Source: an uncultured Candidatus Saccharibacteria bacterium (lineage in GTDB: Bacteria; Patescibacteriota; Minisyncoccia; Phycocordibacterales; UBA2100). From it: a DNA stretch of 24,000 nt. Shown here one piece after another: positions 436-7,374 of this stretch (position 1 is the stretch's first letter; each line of letters opens with the position of its first letter). The notes beneath the pieces are model-generated. The model saw only the letters and a list, made by a program, of their open reading frames with translations. It had not been told where the DNA came from and made no database searches. Position numbers and translations under genes: made by a program. The stretch is taken from NCBI GenBank assembly GCA_964363895.1, contig CAYIJV010000001.1, positions 20,607-44,606 of the forward strand, given 5' to 3'.

Positions 436-1214
436 CAGATATTGGTGGGACGAATATGCGCGTCGCCGCGGCTTCGGCGGACTCGTTGGGTGAAATAAAA
501 AAAGTCCCGACGCCAAGAGATCCGTTGGAAGGAATTGCAAAGTTTGTTGAATTAGCACGCGAGTGCGCGCGCGGAGAGAAAATCACTGCAGTTACAGGTT
601 GTGTTGCGGGAAGCGTGAGCAACTCTGGTGAGATATCAGAAGCACGTAATTTGCGCGCGTGGGAAGGGATGAATATTGTGCAAAAACTCTCGGAAGTCTT
701 CGGCGTTTCTGTACGCATGGTCAATGATGCGGCGCTCGCGGGCTTGGGAGAAGCGTACGCGGGAGCGGGAAGAGGAGCGACGGCACTTGCGTACGTCACT
801 GTTTCGACGGGCGTTGGAGGAGGGTGGATAGTTGACGGAAGAATCGCTGCCGCTGGCGGTGTCGCTAGCATCAAAGTAAATGGCACTGACCTTGAGGACA
901 TTGTTTCGGGGACAGCTGTAACAAAGAAATTTGGCATTCACCCTAAAGATCTTGATTCAGTGGAGGAGCGAAATAAACTTGCGGACATACTTGCAGAAGG
1001 ACTTCGTGTAGTAACCGAGCGATGGTCGCCAGACACTATTGTGCTCGGAGGTTCAATGATAGTCGGCGTAAATCCCATTCCAATTTCGCGCGTCCAAGAA
1101 TCGCTCAACAAACTTCTCGCAATGTATCCGAGACCTCCGTTCATAAAAATGGCAGAGCTCGGGGACAATGGCGGTCTCTGGGGCGGACTCGCTCTCCTCA
1201 AGCAGAGGATATAG
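423..1214 (+). CDS. ROK/ASKHA-superfamily sugar kinase (putative glucokinase)
   Basis: N-terminal phosphate-1 motif MYIVADIGGTNMRVA, a DAALAGLGE motif and a GVGGG motif. It sits next to PGI. It is short (263 aa) and I saw no clear ROK Cys zinc motif. Confidence 0.7.
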   Translation: MYIVADIGGTNMRVAAASADSLGEIKKVPTPRDPLEGIAKFVELARECARGEKITAVTGCVAGSVSNSGEISEARNLRAWEGMNIVQKLSEVFGVSVRMVNDAALAGLGEAYAGAGRGATALAYVTVSTGVGGGWIVDGRIAAAGGVASIKVNGTDLEDIVSGTAVTKKFGIHPKDLDSVEERNKLADILAEGLRVVTERWSPDTIVLGGSMIVGVNPIPISRVQESLNKLLAMYPRPPFIKMAELGDNGGLWGGLALLKQRI

Positions 1215-1815
1215 TCTTTTTTCTCTGCTTTAGAAACTCTAGCACCAGCGGTATACACGTTGCGATGATAATGAGGATGATGATAGGAGTCAGGAATCTC
1301 TCGATGCCGGGGATTTTCCCTCCCAGATAGTAGCCAATGAAGGTAACACCCGACGCCCAGGCCAAAGCGCCCATGATGTTGTAGATAAGGAATGTTCGAT
1401 ACCTCATACGAACGATGCCTGCGACGATGGGTGTAAAAGTGCGTACGATGGGTACGAAACGCGCTAGTACTATGGCTAGAAAACCGTGCCGCTCATAGAA
1501 TACTTTTGCCTGTTCCAGATGTTCGTGATGGAAAAATCGAGAATCGGGACGCAAGAAAAGCCGTACACCGACTTTTGCACCAAACCAATAGCCTACGTTG
1601 TCACCGAGAATTGCCGCAATTGTGAGAAGCGGAATAAGAATCCACACGTTGAAAAATCCTTGAGATGCGAGCAATCCCGCAGTGAATAGCATCGAAGCTC
1701 CTGGGAGGAAGAAGCCGAAGAAAACTCCGGATTCGAGGAAGACCGTCGCAAAGAGGCCGGGGTAGCCGACGAATTGGATAATGGCAGTCAAAGAAAACTC
1801 GGGCATTCGAGGCAT
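1198..1815 (-). CDS. DedA/SNARE-associated family membrane protein
   Basis: Typical DedA strings FLESGVFFGFFLPG and ARFVPIVRTFTPIVAG, with multiple hydrophobic spans. Its 3' end overlaps the convergent kinase gene by 17 nt. Confidence 0.85.
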   Translation of the reverse strand: MPRMPEFSLTAIIQFVGYPGLFATVFLESGVFFGFFLPGASMLFTAGLLASQGFFNVWILIPLLTIAAILGDNVGYWFGAKVGVRLFLRPDSRFFHHEHLEQAKVFYERHGFLAIVLARFVPIVRTFTPIVAGIVRMRYRTFLIYNIMGALAWASGVTFIGYYLGGKIPGIERFLTPIIILIIIATCIPLVLEFLKQRKKTISSA

Positions 1816-1842: not shown

Positions 1843-1863
1843 TCGTTCGGTCTAGACGAACGA
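1843..1863 (-). terminator. Possible terminator hairpin at the glyA 3' end
   Basis: TCGTTCG (1843-1849) pairs with CGAACGA (1857-1863). On the minus strand it is followed by AAATAATTTTG. It spans the glyA stop codon. Confidence 0.35.
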
Positions 1864-3117
1864 TTCAGGAACAGGAAACCTTGCGCACATCGTCCGTATT
1901 TCCTCCCGAACGGCGGAGAGCTTTTTTGTATCGCTCTTATTCTTCATTACATCTACCATGAGCTCGGCGACGCGCGCACTTTCTTTTTCGGTGAATTTCC
2001 GTGTCGTGATAGCTGGCGTGCCGAAGCGGATGCCAGAAGGGTCCATCGGCTTGCGTGTGTCATCGGCGATTGAGTTTTTGTTCAAAGTGATACCCGCATG
2101 GTCGAGCAGCGTTTCCGCCTCATGTCCGGAAATGCCAAGCGAGCCGAAAACATCGGCGAGGAGCAGGTGGTTGCTGGTGCCGCCAGTGAGCAGGCGGATA
2201 TTGTTTTCCAGGAACACTTTTTCCATTGCCTTTGCATTTTTCAGGATTTGATGCGCATAGGTTTTAAATGACGGCATGAGCGCCTCGCCGAACGCGACTG
2301 CTTTTGCGGCGATGTTGTTCATGTGTGGTCCTCCCTGAAGACCCGGGAAGACCATCTTATCTATCTTTTTGCCGACCTCCTCGCTTTCGCGAGTCAGAAT
2401 GAGGCCCCCGCGTGGACCGCGAAGGGTCTTGTGAGTGGTCGAGGTCATCACGTCGAACCCGAAATCAAATGGACTTTTCACCGCCTTACCTGCAATCAAT
2501 CCTGCGATATGTGCAATGTCCATGACAGCGTATGCACCAACTTCGCGAGCTATTTCGACGAATTTTGCATAATTCAATTCACGGGGATACGCGGAAAATC
2601 CTGCGAGCACGATCTTAGGCTTTTCCTTTTGCGCGACTGTACGCATCTCATCGTAATCGATCTCCCCTGTGTTCGGGTCTTTCATCTTATAGCGCACGAA
2701 GTTGAAGATCTTTGTGAGATAGGTGACAGGATGCCCGTGTGTGAGGTGGCCGCCATGCGAGAGATCCATTCCGAGGACCGTGTCGCCTGGCTCAAGAAGA
2801 GCGAAGTACATCGCGATATTTGCGTTTGCGCCACCGAGAGTCTGTACATTGGCATATTTGCAATTAAAAAGTTTCTTCGCGCGTTCGATTGCGAGTATTT
2901 CCACTGCGTCTGTATACGTCTGTCCACCGTAGTAGCGTTTTCCGGGATACCCTTCGGAATATTTGTTGGTCAGACATGAGCCATTAGCCTCACGTACGGC
3001 GCGAGATACATAATTTTCGGAGGGAATCAATTCGAGCCCTTCTGATTCGCGCTTCTCTTCGCCTTCGAGAGCGTCGAATATTTCTTGGTCTTGTTTTTGC
3101 ACATGTGAATAATCCAT
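1852..3117 (-). CDS. glyA: Serine hydroxymethyltransferase
   Basis: Full-length 421 aa with the SHMT hallmarks LELIPSENY, YSEGYPGKRYYGG and the PLP-lysine motif TSTTHKTLRGPRGG. Confidence 0.95.
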   Translation of the reverse strand: MDYSHVQKQDQEIFDALEGEEKRESEGLELIPSENYVSRAVREANGSCLTNKYSEGYPGKRYYGGQTYTDAVEILAIERAKKLFNCKYANVQTLGGANANIAMYFALLEPGDTVLGMDLSHGGHLTHGHPVTYLTKIFNFVRYKMKDPNTGEIDYDEMRTVAQKEKPKIVLAGFSAYPRELNYAKFVEIAREVGAYAVMDIAHIAGLIAGKAVKSPFDFGFDVMTSTTHKTLRGPRGGLILTRESEEVGKKIDKMVFPGLQGGPHMNNIAAKAVAFGEALMPSFKTYAHQILKNAKAMEKVFLENNIRLLTGGTSNHLLLADVFGSLGISGHEAETLLDHAGITLNKNSIADDTRKPMDPSGIRFGTPAITTRKFTEKESARVAELMVDVMKNKSDTKKLSAVREEIRTMCARFPVPESFV

Positions 3118-3169
3118 AGGGAGGATTTAGAAAGAATAATAATGGGATATTGTGTAGCTAAATCATATA

Positions 3170-3787
3170 TTAGTTAGATAGTACCGATTGTACGGCATTC
3201 TCCACCTGCGTCCAGACCTCTACAAGCGGTTTATCTGCATCGATAATCATGGGCGTCCCAAATTCTGCAATGTGCTTTTTATATCCCTCGCGCACGCGAA
3301 TATGGAAATCGAGTTCCTCGTTGTCGAATCTAGTCGGCTCATCAGGGCGCGAGCGGGCACGCGCGATGCCGATCTCTGGCGTGACGTCGAGCAGTATACA
3401 CGCATCGGGTATATACCCCTTAAGCATAGAATCCGAAACTGCACGATAGAGTGGTAAGAGTTCGGGTCGTTGTCGTCCATAAATCTGGTAAGCGATGGAT
3501 GAAAGCGCAAAACGATTTGAAACGACGATCTTGCCCGAATCAAGCGCTGGTTTGATTATTTCCGCGATCATTTGTGCGCGTCCGGCAAGAAATAATAATA
3601 GTTCGCTACGCACATCAATGCCTTTTGTCTTGTCTGACATGAGGAGTTCGCGAATTTCCTCGCCAAGTCTCGTACCTCCGGGATCTTGGGTGTATACAAA
3701 ATCTGGATATGCTTTTTTGAGTCGCTCGACGATTGTCGTTTTACCCGACCCTTCGCCACCCTCGAATACAATGAATTTTCCGCGCAT
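3170..3787 (-). CDS. tmk: Thymidylate (dTMP) kinase
   Basis: P-loop FIVFEGGEGSGKTT, a DRF-like NRFALSSIAYQ motif, and a lid region RSRPDEPTRFD. The gene starts 4 nt after the upstream deaminase stop. Confidence 0.9.
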   Translation of the reverse strand: MRGKFIVFEGGEGSGKTTIVERLKKAYPDFVYTQDPGGTRLGEEIRELLMSDKTKGIDVRSELLLFLAGRAQMIAEIIKPALDSGKIVVSNRFALSSIAYQIYGRQRPELLPLYRAVSDSMLKGYIPDACILLDVTPEIGIARARSRPDEPTRFDNEELDFHIRVREGYKKHIAEFGTPMIIDADKPLVEVWTQVENAVQSVLSN

Positions 3788-3790
3788 GTT

Positions 3791-4288
3791 TTATTCTACA
3801 TCGGCAAACTGCCTGCCGATAACATTGCCATGGTGCGCTTTGTTGAAAAGTCTTTCACTGCCTTCAAGGAGGTAGACGTTTTCGATGCCTGACTCGATGA
3901 TCGCATTCCAACATGGCGCGCACGCCCACCAATGCCCCCAGAGATAGAGATCGGCACCCACAGTGTCGTGGCCGTTTTTCATTGCATCGGCAATTGCACG
4001 CGGCTCGCTATGGTTTTTTGGATGGCAACCTTCACACAATTCGTAGCCGTGTCCGGTCGGGATCCCGCGCTTCACGCGCTCGCAGCCGTGCTCGGTATGA
4101 TAATTGCTTCCGTTGGCCCCGCGCCCGATCACCTCGCCGCCTCTCACAACTACGGATCCTGTTTTGACCACATCATCGAGCGAATGGAGTTTCGCATATT
4201 CCCGCGCCTCTTGTATGAAAGGATTGTGCGCATCGACGTAGCGCATGATGCGGCCAGTCGGGATGTAAGGATAGTCAATAGACAACAT
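3791..4288 (-). CDS. Deoxycytidylate (dCMP) deaminase, CMP/dCMP deaminase zinc-binding family
   Basis: Zinc motifs HSE (NHSEPRAI) and CAPC (WACAPCWNAI), plus an extra CEGC/H cluster as in dCMP deaminases. VVRGGEVIGRGANG core. Confidence 0.8.
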   Translation of the reverse strand: MLSIDYPYIPTGRIMRYVDAHNPFIQEAREYAKLHSLDDVVKTGSVVVRGGEVIGRGANGSNYHTEHGCERVKRGIPTGHGYELCEGCHPKNHSEPRAIADAMKNGHDTVGADLYLWGHWWACAPCWNAIIESGIENVYLLEGSERLFNKAHHGNVIGRQFADVE

Positions 4289-4331
4289 AGCGCCAATGTA
4301 CCATGCCTTCGACTAGATTCTTTCTGATAGG

Positions 4332-4337
4332 TATAAT
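4332..4337 (+). promoter_or_regulatory. TATAAT -10 box 6 nt upstream of the thyA-family ATG (leaderless-type promoter)
   Basis: A consensus TATAAT at 4332-4337 with the ATG at 4344 and no SD between them. The 55-nt divergent intergenic region is shared with the dCMP deaminase operon. Confidence 0.4.
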
Positions 4338-4343
4338 CGCTCC

Positions 4344-5180
4344 ATGACCCGCTTTGACGAGATATATCAAGGATTGCTCGGACAGATCTTCGAGCGGGGT
4401 GTACGGGAGAAAAATGAGCGCACCGGTCATGAGGTCATGGCCATTCCGGGACTTCACTTCTCACTCGATGTGGAGAAAGAAGGTTTTCCGCTTCTTACAT
4501 TGCGCAAAATTCCGGTCAAAATGTTCGTAGCCGAGCAAGTGTGGTTTATTGCCGGAGTTAGAAAGCCTGCCGATTTTTTGCGCGACTACACAAAGATTTG
4601 GGACAGCTTCACGAACCCCGCCGATGTCGTCACCGTGGCGTATGGCTATCGGTGGCGGAAACATTTCGGGAGAGACCAGATCAAACTCCTCATAGATCTC
4701 TTGAAAAAAGAACCAAGTTCGCGGCATGGTGTTGTCGTTACATGGGACCCTGCTTCGGATGGTTTGGGTGTCACAAAAAAGAAGAACGTGCCGTGTCCGT
4801 ACACGTTTACCGTCAATATAATCGGAGGCAGATTGAATTTGCATAACGTTGTCCGTTCCAATGACATGGTCTTGGGTTTCCCGTCGGATGTCGCCGGATT
4901 CGCCTTGTTACAGACTATTCTGGCACAGAAGCTGAATGTCGGGGTGGGCGTGTACTCACATTCCATCTCGAATGCGCACATCTATGACAATCAATACGAT
5001 GCGGTGAAGGAACTACTACAGCGCGAGAATACTCATGTGCCTATACGCATAACACTCCCTAAGAGCTCTTTTGAAAGGGCGGAAAAAAAGGACCACAAAT
5101 TGGTCGACGAGATTGTTTCTCAATTTACGTTACAATACCAACCACAACCCGCAATTACCGGCCTCTCAATTGTCCTGTAG
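4344..5180 (+). CDS. thyA: Thymidylate synthase (ThyA) family protein, atypical: Asp at the Asn177-equivalent position
   Basis: Aligns without gaps to the ThyA core: ERTG, AEQVWF, YGYRWR, catalytic Cys in VPCPY (codon 4794-4796), RSNDMVLGFPSDVAGFALL, AHIYDNQ. Asp182 (GAT, 4887-4889) replaces the conserved Asn. Confidence 0.85.
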   Translation: MTRFDEIYQGLLGQIFERGVREKNERTGHEVMAIPGLHFSLDVEKEGFPLLTLRKIPVKMFVAEQVWFIAGVRKPADFLRDYTKIWDSFTNPADVVTVAYGYRWRKHFGRDQIKLLIDLLKKEPSSRHGVVVTWDPASDGLGVTKKKNVPCPYTFTVNIIGGRLNLHNVVRSNDMVLGFPSDVAGFALLQTILAQKLNVGVGVYSHSISNAHIYDNQYDAVKELLQRENTHVPIRITLPKSSFERAEKKDHKLVDEIVSQFTLQYQPQPAITGLSIVL

Positions 5181-5189
5181 AATATCGCC

Positions 5190-5825
5190 ATGGCAATTCT
5201 TACAAAGAAGGAAATACTCGATCGCGTAAAAAGCGGGAATATCGCGTTCTACCCAGGTCTCGACCGCTTCCAATTACAGATGCATGCTGTCGATCTTCGC
5301 CTTGGCTTTACTTTTCTCATTCCAAAGGTCTGGAAGATGACATCAAAGGGGCGACAGGCGCTCTCGATCGATCCCCTGAAGGATCATGGACCGGAGTATT
5401 TTGATGTTATTGAGCTTGAGCAAGGGCAGTGTTTTGAATTGTTGCCGCAGGAGTACGTGCTGGTCTCGACATTCGAGACGATCAAGGTGCCAAATGACTT
5501 GATGGCGGTCTTGTACCCGCGCTCATCGGTGAATCGTAAGGGGCTTTCCGTCGACCTGACAGGCATCATCGATTCCGGCTACGAGGGACCGCTCACGCTT
5601 CCTATACGCAACAACACGCGCTCGCAAACTATCCAGTTGCACCCGGGCGAAAGATTTTGTCAGATCGTCTTTGAGGAGCTGAAACACAAAATCGAACCGC
5701 AAAAAAGTCGCTGGCATCAGAAAGATGTGGTGGAGAAGGGGAAGAAGGAGAAATCAGCCGAAATGAAACTCGTGTTTAGCGGCGATCTCAAAAAATTAAA
5801 GTCTGATTTTTCGGCTCTCGAATAA
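5190..5825 (+). CDS. dcd: dCTP deaminase/dUTPase-superfamily protein (Dcd-like; deaminase Glu not conserved)
   Basis: Dcd-type N-terminus (ILTKKEILDRV...VDLRLG), PRSSVNRKGL, GIIDSGYEGPLTLPIRN. Pro138 (CCT, 5601-5603) occupies the column of the catalytic Glu of E. coli Dcd and M. jannaschii DCD-DUT. Lys-rich C-terminal tail. Confidence 0.65.
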   Translation: MAILTKKEILDRVKSGNIAFYPGLDRFQLQMHAVDLRLGFTFLIPKVWKMTSKGRQALSIDPLKDHGPEYFDVIELEQGQCFELLPQEYVLVSTFETIKVPNDLMAVLYPRSSVNRKGLSVDLTGIIDSGYEGPLTLPIRNNTRSQTIQLHPGERFCQIVFEELKHKIEPQKSRWHQKDVVEKGKKEKSAEMKLVFSGDLKKLKSDFSALE

Positions 5826-5827
5826 CC

Positions 5828-6346
5828 ATGGCCGCTCGAATCTGTGCCGTTGTTGCCATCGGGAAGAATAGAGAACTCGGCAAAGACGGAAAATTGCTCT
5901 GGCGCATTCCTGATGATCTAAGGCGCTTTAAACGATTAACTCTCGGATACCCGATAATTTTAGGCCGCAAGACATTTGAATCAATCGTCGAATATCTGGG
6001 TAAACCTCTGCCGGAGAGAACGAATATAGTGGTTTCTCGCAAAGGACCGTCCTTTGTAGATTCCCAAGGACGGTCCTTTGCAAACGTTGTTGTCGCCTCT
6101 TCGCTCGAAGAGGCAATCGCAAGCGCGAGGGAACTCAACTCCGAAGAAATTCACATTGGTGGCGGTGCTGAAATTTACAAACAAGCTCTATCATATATAG
6201 ACAAGCTGTATCTCACGCTTATAGACGATAAAAAGGATGCGGACACCTTCTTCCCGCCGTATGAAGATCAATTCACAAAGAAAGTATTTGAAGAATCGCA
6301 CGAATGGAATGGCATTAAATATCGGTGGGTGGATTTAGAGCGTTAG
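5828..6346 (+). CDS. folA: Dihydrofolate reductase
   Basis: VVAIGKNRELGKDGKLLWRIPDDLRRFKRLTLGYPIILGRKTFESI and IGGGAEIY motifs. The start lies 2 nt after the upstream stop. Confidence 0.9.
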   Translation: MAARICAVVAIGKNRELGKDGKLLWRIPDDLRRFKRLTLGYPIILGRKTFESIVEYLGKPLPERTNIVVSRKGPSFVDSQGRSFANVVVASSLEEAIASARELNSEEIHIGGGAEIYKQALSYIDKLYLTLIDDKKDADTFFPPYEDQFTKKVFEESHEWNGIKYRWVDLER

Positions 6347-7374
6347 TGCGACATGCTCTTCAGGACTTTGAGGTACAAATTCTCGACGATTTTTTGCTGT
6401 GCTTTGCCGGTTTTTACGTAGTGATCCAAGCCAGGCGCCGCATTGATCTCGATGACCCAATATTGGGCGGGCTTATTGGTGATACTTCCTTCTATCATAA
6501 GGTCAACGCCGCAAAGTCGCAGGCCCATATCTTTTGTCAGCTTGACAGCGATGTTCTTAAATTCCGGATGGATTTCTTTTGTCACATCGATCGAATCGCC
6601 GCCGGAGGATAGATTTGCGTTGTCTAAGAGATACACACGCTCTCCTCGAACGGGGACGGAGCGCATGTTCATTTTTTTGCGTTTCAACTTGTTGGCAATA
6701 CGCGGATCATCAATCTTTATTTGCGTGTCACGGCTCGAGGCAAGAAATTCGCGTGCCTTTTTTGTGAGTAGCTGTCGGACAGTTGAACGTCCATTGCCTG
6801 CGACATTTAATGGTATTCGCTCATACGCGGAAATCACCGCCTTATCCAAAACTACAATCCGATAATCTCTTCCGTGCACAGGCTTCTGAATCAAGGCGAT
6901 CTTATCGTTTCGAAATATATATTTCATCGCGCGCAAAAACTCTTGTTTGTTGTGTACGAGCGAGATGCCAACGCCCTGGCTTCCGCTATTTGGCTTCATA
7001 ATGACGGGGAAGCCGAGTTTTTTCGCATAGCGATATCCAGCATCTATGTTGCGATATGAACCGATCGTTTTACACCACTCGTCTGAAAAGAATGCTTTGC
7101 CGGGAATGGTCGGGTATCCCATGCGGCGCATGAAAAAGGTTGCATAGTCTTTGTCTTTCGAAATGTCCGCCGATCCGACAGGGTTGAGATCGACGGTGTT
7201 GTAACGGAAGTAGCGATGTATGCCGGCCTTACCCGCTTTTGCTGGGTAACGGATCTGGCCCGCAATCTGCCAATTCGGCTCCAGTGTTACTCGCGCACCA
7301 ATGCGGGTGGCGAGTCTTTTGAGCATTTTCGCAAGGACGAGGCGTTCGGGTTTTCTCTTCATGTGCGGTATCAT
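6343..7374 (-). CDS. ATP-grasp ligase related to the cyanophycin synthetase / GshF ATP-grasp domain (stand-alone)
   Basis: FPVIMKPNSGSQGVGISLV, DYRIVVLDKAVISAYERIPLNVAGNGRSTV, NLSSGGDSIDVTKEIHPEF and VIEINAAPGL resemble CphA G-domain strings (recalled). No Mur-ligase-like domain follows. An alternative start is at 7362. Confidence 0.7.
   Translation of the reverse strand: MIPHMKRKPERLVLAKMLKRLATRIGARVTLEPNWQIAGQIRYPAKAGKAGIHRYFRYNTVDLNPVGSADISKDKDYATFFMRRMGYPTIPGKAFFSDEWCKTIGSYRNIDAGYRYAKKLGFPVIMKPNSGSQGVGISLVHNKQEFLRAMKYIFRNDKIALIQKPVHGRDYRIVVLDKAVISAYERIPLNVAGNGRSTVRQLLTKKAREFLASSRDTQIKIDDPRIANKLKRKKMNMRSVPVRGERVYLLDNANLSSGGDSIDVTKEIHPEFKNIAVKLTKDMGLRLCGVDLMIEGSITNKPAQYWVIEINAAPGLDHYVKTGKAQQKIVENLYLKVLKSMSH

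Follow-up and report, generated by a model that had tools for sequence, protein, structure and literature searches.

A candidate deoxycytidylate-methylating route to thymidylate encoded by a chromosomal gene cluster of a patescibacterium

In this study, we analyzed a cluster of thymidylate genes in a 24,000-nucleotide stretch of DNA (the window; assembly GCA_964363895.1, contig CAYIJV010000001.1, positions 20,607 to 44,606 of the forward strand) from an uncultured Candidatus Saccharibacteria bacterium (GTDB lineage Bacteria; Patescibacteriota; Minisyncoccia; Phycocordibacterales; UBA2100). The source assembly comprises 662 kb in 44 contigs and is 93% complete. By the names of its closest protein homologues, it would belong to Candidatus Kaiserbacteria / Paceibacterota within the Patescibacteria. 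Listing of open reading frames (ORFs) and family scans revealed two divergent operons, with a deaminase gene, tmk, glyA, and dedA on the minus strand and genes for a homologue of thymidylate synthase (TS, ThyA), a protein of the dCTP deaminase (Dcd) fold, and folA on the plus strand. The following features were identified (window positions):

1198..1815, minus strand: dedA-family membrane protein (PF09335 VTT domain, 78 bits; DedA PRK10847, 164 bits, under cut-off)
1852..3117, minus strand: glyA, serine hydroxymethyltransferase (PF00464, 490 bits; NF000586, 554 bits vs cut-off 335)
3170..3787, minus strand: tmk, dTMP kinase (TIGR00041, 148.6 bits vs cut-off 83)
3791..4288, minus strand: divergent zinc deaminase of the cytidine deaminase (CDA) fold, dCMP-deaminase-like (PF00383, 44 bits vs cut-off 25)
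4289..4343, no strand: divergent intergenic spacer of 55 nt with a promoter-like site on the plus strand at 4309-4337
4344..5180, plus strand: ThyA homologue (PF00303, 181 bits)
5190..5825, plus strand: Dcd/dUTPase-fold protein (PF22769, 119 bits)
5828..6346, plus strand: folA, dihydrofolate reductase (DHFR) (PF00186, DHFR_1, 146 bits)

The stop codon of the deaminase gene and the start of tmk are separated by 3 nt. The last gene of the minus-strand operon, dedA, is syntenic in both forms of the locus described below and is probably not part of the pathway. Within the spacer, a sigma-70-like site TCGACT-17-TATAAT on the plus strand matches the consensus at 10 of 12 positions, and no consensus promoter was picked up on the minus strand. 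The original prediction for this DNA, made from the letters of the window, had named the seven genes, the 55-nt divergent spacer, Asp182 of the ThyA homologue, and Pro138 of the Dcd-like protein, all of which were borne out by ORFs, family scans, codons, and alignments. Its description of the spacer as a divergent promoter region holds for the length, while a promoter signal was found on the plus strand only; its range 1852-6346 agrees with the gene list except for dedA (1198-1815), which it named in the text and which lies outside that range.

The active site of the ThyA homologue was compared with solved structures using HMMER. Asp182 (GAT, 4887-4889) aligns to the Asn of the TS motif 'FNIAS', which is Asn177 in E. 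coli, and Pro152, in VPCPY, aligns to the His of 'PCH', which is His147 in E. coli; in place of the canonical signature Asn177 plus His147, which reads O4 and N3-H of uracil, the protein has Asp plus Pro. The catalytic Cys151 (codon 4794-4796) corresponds to Cys146, and the other catalytic residues are kept as well (in E. coli numbering, R21, E58, W80, Y94, R126, C146, R166, S167, D169, H207, and Y209). At the position of R127 a His is present, at W83 a Phe, and at L143 an Asn, the latter two as in the homologue of phage Xp12. The C-terminus, QYQPQPAITGLSIVL, matches the TS tail, GYDPHPGIKAPVAI. Asp177 is found in 120 of the 120 closest homologues (74-100% identity) and Pro147 in 118 of them, and nearly all end with '(I/V)VL'; because both residues are near-invariant in this set, they are not chance substitutions. 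Positions 177 and 147 are those which best separate ThyA homologues of cytosine-modified from those of unmodified metavirome contigs, and mutagenesis work is cited in the same paper according to which Asn177Asp or Asn229Asp turns TS into a dCMP methylase (PMC8670742). The curated model TIGR03284 'thymidylate synthase' is passed (129.6 bits vs cut-off 108.35), and for five PRK01827 equivalog models and PRK13821 the protein scores far under the cut-offs.

Overall, the protein is about 35% identical to the Xp12 homologue (E 3e-43), 28% to E. coli TS (E 3e-34), and 22% to the T4 dCMP hydroxymethylase gp42 (E 7e-10). Among 50,697 phage records, the top tblastn matches were Xp12-type ThyA homologues (33-37% identity, E 1e-41 to 1e-48), headed by Xp12 and its relatives Mallos, PaMx74, Donnerlittchen, RcSimone-Hastad, and others; the best matches among solved canonical TS structures were weaker (E 1e-31). 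For a family survey, 1.84 billion cluster representatives were searched exhaustively and the best 150 matches were taken, of which the 138 with at least 200 residues were aligned together with the window protein, E. coli ThyA, T4 gp42, and the Xp12 protein (n = 142). Asp177 occurs in 123 of the 142 sequences, combined with Pro147 in 97 and with another residue at position 147 in 26, and Asn177 occurs in 17 (including E. coli ThyA). Fusions of a CDA-type deaminase (P0141) or a PRA-PH/MazG pyrophosphatase (P0185) to an Asp177-type ThyA homologue were found among the representatives; in a further one (P0146), such a homologue is fused to an HNH endonuclease domain. In a tree of 147 rows, the canonical His/Asn proteins form one well-supported clade and T4 gp42 sits on a very long branch. 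The window protein lies outside the canonical clade and, judged by its sequence, is a member of the Asp177 radiation; no descent from phage is claimed, the backbone of the tree being weak.

A comparable exchange is found in the Dcd-like protein. Pro138 (CCT, 5601-5603) lies in 'TLPIRN', which aligns with 'TLELFN' of dCTP deaminases in the HMMER comparison with solved structures, and replaces the catalytic Glu. Of the dCTP deaminase residues Glu138, Ser111, and Arg115 (E. coli numbering), the first has thus been lost, whereas Ser and Arg persist in 'RSSVNR', as does the Asp in 'IID'. All but one member of this subfamily have Pro at the Glu position (Ser in the exception), while other Dcd proteins of the phylum keep Glu. 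Since the protein nevertheless passes TIGR02274 (110.6 vs cut-off 92.8), family models would mis-name it. Also, it differs from trimeric dUTPases, as its C-terminus (…KGKKEKSAEMKLVFSGDLKKLKSDFSALE) is devoid of the Gly-rich motif 5 and dut models score it at 45-48 bits (cut-offs 102-130). We propose that it could act as a dCTP diphosphatase that supplies dCMP, possibly also acting on dUTP. In a MAFFT alignment, the Asp of 'SVDLTG' (window 5490-5500) falls on Asn84 of E. coli dUTPase, presumably a uracil-reading residue, in a column of D, N, and E beside a gap. It could be a second Asn-to-Asp switch from uracil to cytosine and is kept as a lead only.

The deaminase belongs to a distinct, well-conserved family of 1254 homologues, named 'deaminase' or 'deoxycytidylate deaminase' in their sources, in which the zinc ligands HSE and C-A-P-C (C-x-x-C) are invariant and further Cys and His residues are conserved. 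'GANG' is present where the allosteric GYNG motif was expected. An AF2 model (pLDDT 87.8) gave the T4 dCMP deaminase 1vq2 as best fold match (E 3.4e-7), and 'dCMP-deaminase-like' is a reasonable name. Because of the operon link to tmk, we propose that the enzyme acts on a monophosphate; dCMP deaminases are reported to accept 5-methyl-dCMP (PMC12088426).

The gene complement of the genome agrees with the original prediction, which had expected canonical thyA, thyX, and dut to be missing elsewhere. PF00303 was matched once in the genome, by the window's ThyA homologue alone, and a family search found no ThyX in the 93%-complete assembly. The Dcd-like gene is the one gene of the dUTPase superfamily and the cluster gene the one CDA-fold deaminase; no second ThyA, other dUTPase, or other CDA-fold deaminase was found genome-wide. 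Likewise, no thymidine kinase or deoxynucleoside kinase (dNK) for thymidine salvage, no C5 DNA methyltransferase, and no Cmk-type cytidylate kinase (PF02224) were found in the genome, the latter family being matched in 14 of 14 control genomes. Domain matches of the ribonucleotide reductase are to RNR_Alpha and the B12-RNR insertion, which we take to mark a monomeric class II enzyme reducing triphosphates; from such an enzyme, deoxycytidine nucleotides would arise as dCTP. A gene for uracil-DNA glycosylase is present elsewhere in the genome. Taken together, the cluster is apparently a housekeeping one and the only de novo thymidylate pathway of this patescibacterium.

To place the cluster in its genus, 24 other species were inspected, 22 of which have one ThyA each: nine an Asp-type enzyme (74-85% identical to that of the window) and 13 a canonical His/Asn enzyme (26-32%). 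Twenty loci were re-fetched and compared with the window, giving 21 loci, which share the flanks rok, dedA, glyA, (tmk) … folA, (ATP-grasp), purL. They fall into two states. In state B (10 genomes including this one), the core consists of the deaminase, the Asp-type ThyA (Asp-ThyA), and the Pro-type Dcd (Pro-Dcd), with the deaminase gene adjacent in 10 of 10. In state A (11 of the 13 state-A species), an Asn-type ThyA lies beside a Dcd which has kept its Glu ('ITFEITN' or 'WTMEITN'), and no stand-alone CDA deaminase was found in the 13 Asn-ThyA species; a CDA-domain protein of about 400 residues is present in both states. The kinase does not track this swap, its identity to the window's Tmk being 61-75% in state B and 59-72% in state A, and neither does folA, which is at the locus and conserved to an equal degree in both states. 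Also, in trees of Tmk, FolA, PurL, and DedA the states interleave, although these trees are weakly resolved and the starred branches force only 1-2 changes. Three genes switch as a unit and the downstream kinase is unchanged, which argues that both cassettes deliver the same product, dTMP. As a proxy for hypermutation at 5-methylcytosine (5mC), the GC content, the GC content of third codon positions (GC3), and CpG were compared between the loci; GC3 was 0.585 in state B and 0.648 in state A, with widely overlapping ranges. A prophage or phage island was ruled out by the chromosomal synteny conserved over the 21 loci.

Further variation was observed at these loci. In eight state-A genomes (G002, G005, G008, G014-G016, G019, G020; L167, L169, L170, L172-L176), Dcd carries 'GIINPGH', with Asn for the Asp of the 'ID.G' motif, and no separate dUTPase was detected in them. 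Two forms of glyA occur, about 45% and 75-92% identical to that of the window and independent of the cassette state, and in one genome (G006) two glyA-like genes lie side by side; genes appear to be replaced at this locus with unusual frequency. Downstream of folA, an ATP-grasp ligase gene (6343-7374, minus strand) is convergent with it, overlaps it by 4 nt, and is conserved in position in most relatives, whether of state A or B. The best hits of its product, which are partial, are to cyanophycin synthetase and GshAB-type domains and all score far under the cut-offs.

In an even set of 401 Patescibacteria genomes (counts include this genome), 19 have the Asp-ThyA (at least 41% identity), 15 have a member of the Pro-Dcd subfamily (at least 44% identity), and 16 have a deaminase of the cluster type. 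The original prediction had proposed co-occurrence of these three as a test: they occur together in 10 of 10 carriers of the genus and in 13 of the 401 genomes, the latter from at least 10 families and mostly within about 2 kb. ThyX is present in 162 of the 401 genomes, but in only one of the 19 with Asp-ThyA, and none of these 19 has a second ThyA match. ThyX being rare and a second ThyA missing among them, the Asp-type enzyme fills the slot of the sole thymidylate synthase. Variant arrangements were also seen. G313 is without the cluster-type deaminase and has thyA(Asp), DHFR, and dcd(Pro) followed by a gene for a 351-residue protein (L103:2142-3197), which shows a weak, partial TS match (PF00303, 21.9 bits, under cut-off). 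G204, which is 97% complete, has a Pro-Dcd gene overlapping that of a canonical ComEB-like dCMP deaminase (81 bits; L098:1050-2139); searches there with the window protein (E<=1e-10) and with the Pfam family gave no ThyA and no ThyX, respectively.

From these data, we suggest that the cluster encodes a route from dCTP via dCMP and 5-methyl-dCMP to dTMP and dTDP, and we give this reading, which is based on sequence comparison and gene context, a little better than an even chance. The class II reductase, resembling the triphosphate-reducing type, would probably make dCTP. The Dcd-fold protein, which has lost the deaminase Glu and kept the Asp of 'IID' in common with dUTPases, would hydrolyze dCTP to dCMP and pyrophosphate, and the ThyA homologue would convert dCMP and methylene-tetrahydrofolate (methylene-THF) to 5-methyl-dCMP and dihydrofolate (DHF). 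Thereafter, the co-inherited CDA-fold deaminase would convert 5-methyl-dCMP to dTMP, which Tmk would phosphorylate to dTDP, while FolA and GlyA would recycle the folate, with GlyA regenerating 5,10-methylene-THF. Such a pathway would probably run without dUMP. Its best-supported step is the predicted methylation of dCMP by the Asp-ThyA. We infer the hydrolysis of dCTP by the Pro-Dcd and the deamination of 5-methyl-dCMP because the genes are inherited together, Dcd has lost its deaminase Glu, the deaminase gene adjoins tmk in one operon, Tmk is unchanged, and dCMP deaminases reportedly accept 5-methyl-dCMP. All substrate assignments are predictions, and the least secure concern what the Dcd-like protein acts on and whether the deaminase works on a mono- or a triphosphate.

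Several observations weigh against this route. The deaminase is only weakly dCMP-deaminase-like: its score for the ComEB equivalog is 28 bits (cut-off 219), solved dCMP deaminases were matched by phmmer against the PDB at E ~0.007 only, BLAST against the Xp12 deaminase gave no similarity (E 0.22), and the fold match to 1vq2 is at TM ~0.5, with RibD, cyanophage and PBCV-1 dCMP deaminases, and TadA close behind. Moreover, the characterized deaminases of phage modules are reported to act on 5-methyl-dCTP and not on 5-methyl-dCMP (PMC12088426; bioRxiv 10.1101/2024.12.05.627091, for the single deaminase examined in detail there). The Dcd-like protein has a dUTPase-like motif 3 (IIDSGYEG) and may be a plain dUTPase, and a small MazG-like gene is present elsewhere in the genome. 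In the ThyA tree, the patescibacterial Asp-ThyAs form a subclade of their own, apart from the clade of Xp12, PaMx74, and RcSimone-Hastad, with a weak backbone. Five genomes with Asp-ThyA, all of one family, are without Pro-Dcd. In G408, the only Asp-ThyA genome of the sample with ThyX, the same triad lies beside a Tmk-ThyX fusion (L178:607-2967, G408:C1), so that Asp-ThyA can coexist with a dUMP-dependent synthase; in this protein of 786 residues, a dTMP kinase at the N-terminus is fused to two tandem copies of a ThyX-like domain, with the RHR motif present, and its gene directly follows that of the cluster-type deaminase. Finally, at 93% completeness the absences from the genome are strong hints, not proof.

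The same genes would also serve the ordinary order of reactions, in which the Dcd-like protein yields dCMP (or dUMP from dUTP), the deaminase turns dCMP into dUMP, and the Asp177 enzyme still methylates dUMP. We regard this as rather unlikely; the cassette would then be a phage-derived or divergent replacement with unchanged chemistry. The gene set fits both orders and the TS model TIGR03284 is passed; in G408, ThyX is kept beside the same deaminase and Dcd-like genes and dUMP is presumably made, G204 couples Pro-Dcd with a dCMP deaminase of the canonical kind, and dUTP is probably among the products of the reductase, so that the cell may contain dUMP. Yet Asp177 with a residue other than His at position 147 is the published signature of cytosine (PMC8670742), Asp177 is invariant among the closest homologues, and the ordinary order gives no reason why the ThyA type, the Glu of Dcd, and a special deaminase subfamily should switch jointly. 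In addition, tested relatives, namely the Xp12 homologue and five of seven metavirome Asp177 homologues, are reported to make 5-methyl-dCMP in E. coli (bioRxiv 10.1101/2024.12.05.627091). A hydroxymethylase of the T4 gp42 type, forming 5-hydroxymethyl-dCMP, would share the Asp at the specificity position but is very improbable. Three features set hydration by the T4 enzyme apart from hydride transfer by TS, namely the missing C-terminal tail, Asp at L143, and Val at W83 (PMC6400193); the window protein has the tail and, at these positions, Asn and Phe, on which grounds a T4-type hydroxymethylase was rejected. Also, DHFR is kept, and the cell, in which no other ThyA, ThyX, or TK/dNK was found, would be left with no thymidylate route. 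The TS-type tail kept to the last residue, the greater similarity to the Xp12 protein and E. coli TS than to gp42, the 5-methyl-dCMP reported for the Xp12 homologue, and the presence of DHFR in every state-B contig of sufficient length all argue for a methylase; reductive methylation with release of DHF rather than hydration would be the chemistry predicted from the sequence. The original prediction had reached the same preference partly from glyA and folA; both genes lie at the same locus in relatives with canonical ThyA, reflecting inherited synteny and providing no independent evidence.

A different use of the same product is known from phages. Xp12 DNA contains 100% 5mC according to liquid chromatography-mass spectrometry (PMC7653180). 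The deaminases linked to the phage ThyA homologues are reported to be 5mC-selective, and such phages have been proposed to make dTTP from 5-methyl-dCTP, with no need for a dUMP-dependent synthase (bioRxiv 10.1101/2024.12.05.627091), an idea that, according to the citations in PMC12088426, dates to Kuo, Chow and Lin 1982 and Wang and Ehrlich 1982. By analogy, 5-methyl-dCMP might be phosphorylated to 5-methyl-dCTP, enter the chromosome, and be partly deaminated to dTTP, with the Dcd-like protein clearing dCTP from the pool as phage dCTPases do. This is quite unlikely. Four functions match the Xp12 module, whose deaminases are triphosphate-specific as stated above, the genome search gave no C5 DNA methyltransferase, and GC3 is slightly lower in state B; but the GC3 ranges overlap, the deaminase is unrelated to that of Xp12 at the BLAST level, and neither Cmk nor another candidate kinase for 5-methyl-dCMP was found in the genome. 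Tmk, which would be dispensable if dTTP came from 5-methyl-dCTP, is retained next to the deaminase and undiverged between the states, and at this housekeeping locus the cassette stands in for a normal thyA-dcd pair. A chromosome built with 5mC replacing or alongside cytosine, via phosphorylated 5-methyl-dCMP as in Xp12, is improbable; if true, pre-replicative replacement of a base throughout the genome would be seen for the first time in a cellular organism.

For the proposed route via dCMP methylation, the nearest precedent is the 5mC module of Xp12 and not, as had been suggested originally, a T4-style gene set. Xp12, PaMx74, and RcSimone-Hastad have, in this order, genes for a MazG/PRA-PH pyrophosphatase, a ThyA homologue (VPCP…GLPYDV), a 'dCMP deaminase', and DHFR, so that the same four functions adjoin each other; modules of this type are also known from metavirome contigs. 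The Xp12 ThyA homologue shares Asp177, Pro147, and the motifs 'YGYRWR.HFGRDQ', 'WDPA.DGLG', and 'KNVPCP' with that of the window, and thymidine nucleotides would in both cases arise from 5-methyl-dC nucleotides by deamination, bypassing dUMP, which for the window is a proposal only. In contrast to the phage module, the window's cluster is a chromosomal, housekeeping one at a conserved locus between rok/dedA and purL and holds the only TS found in the cell; its putative pyrophosphatase has the Dcd/dUTPase fold and not that of MazG/PRA-PH, its deaminase is of another, divergent subfamily, and its ThyA homologue belongs to a separate subclade and has the full TS-type C-terminal tail. Also, the phage module is carried on a phage genome and serves 5mC-substituted virion DNA. 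With the canonical ThyA/Dcd (or Dcd:Dut)/FolA pathway of the sister species, it has in common the locus, the flanks, the folds, and, as proposed, the net conversion of dCTP to dTMP with recycling of DHF. It differs by the exchanges Asn177 to Asp, His147 to Pro, and Dcd Glu to Pro, by the extra deaminase gene, and by the proposed order of methylation followed by deamination, with no dUTP or dUMP intermediate. The T4 gene set (gp56 dCTPase, gp42, cd, frd, gp1) resembles it in a dCTPase feeding a ThyA homologue that modifies dCMP and has Asp at the specificity position. However, gp42 is distant and tail-less and makes THF instead of DHF (PMC6400193), T4 has its own canonical TS, and homologues of gp56 or gp1 are absent from the window's cluster.

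De novo synthesis of thymidylate in cells is commonly said to require dUMP as precursor, and dUTP, a side product of dUMP, makes dUTPase and uracil repair necessary. If our reading is true, a free-standing lineage of cells in which dCMP is methylated first and the product deaminated afterwards would be an exception to this description. The chemistry and the module are already known from phages, and full-text literature searches yielded no paper on a cellular organism with such a route. What would be new is its cellular, housekeeping, and apparently exclusive use, together with a Dcd-fold pyrophosphatase instead of MazG and a different deaminase subfamily. Since the ThyA homologue and the Dcd-like protein both score above curated cut-offs, annotation pipelines call their genes 'thymidylate synthase' and 'dCTP deaminase'; the two names are probably wrong, and in that case metabolic reconstructions of the candidate phyla radiation (CPR) would be misled. 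An Asp-type ThyA is present in about 5% of Patescibacteria genomes (even sample of 401). The route would show that a pathway known only from 5mC phages is able to serve as housekeeping metabolism, and the genus would offer a natural case of two interchangeable thymidylate cassettes.

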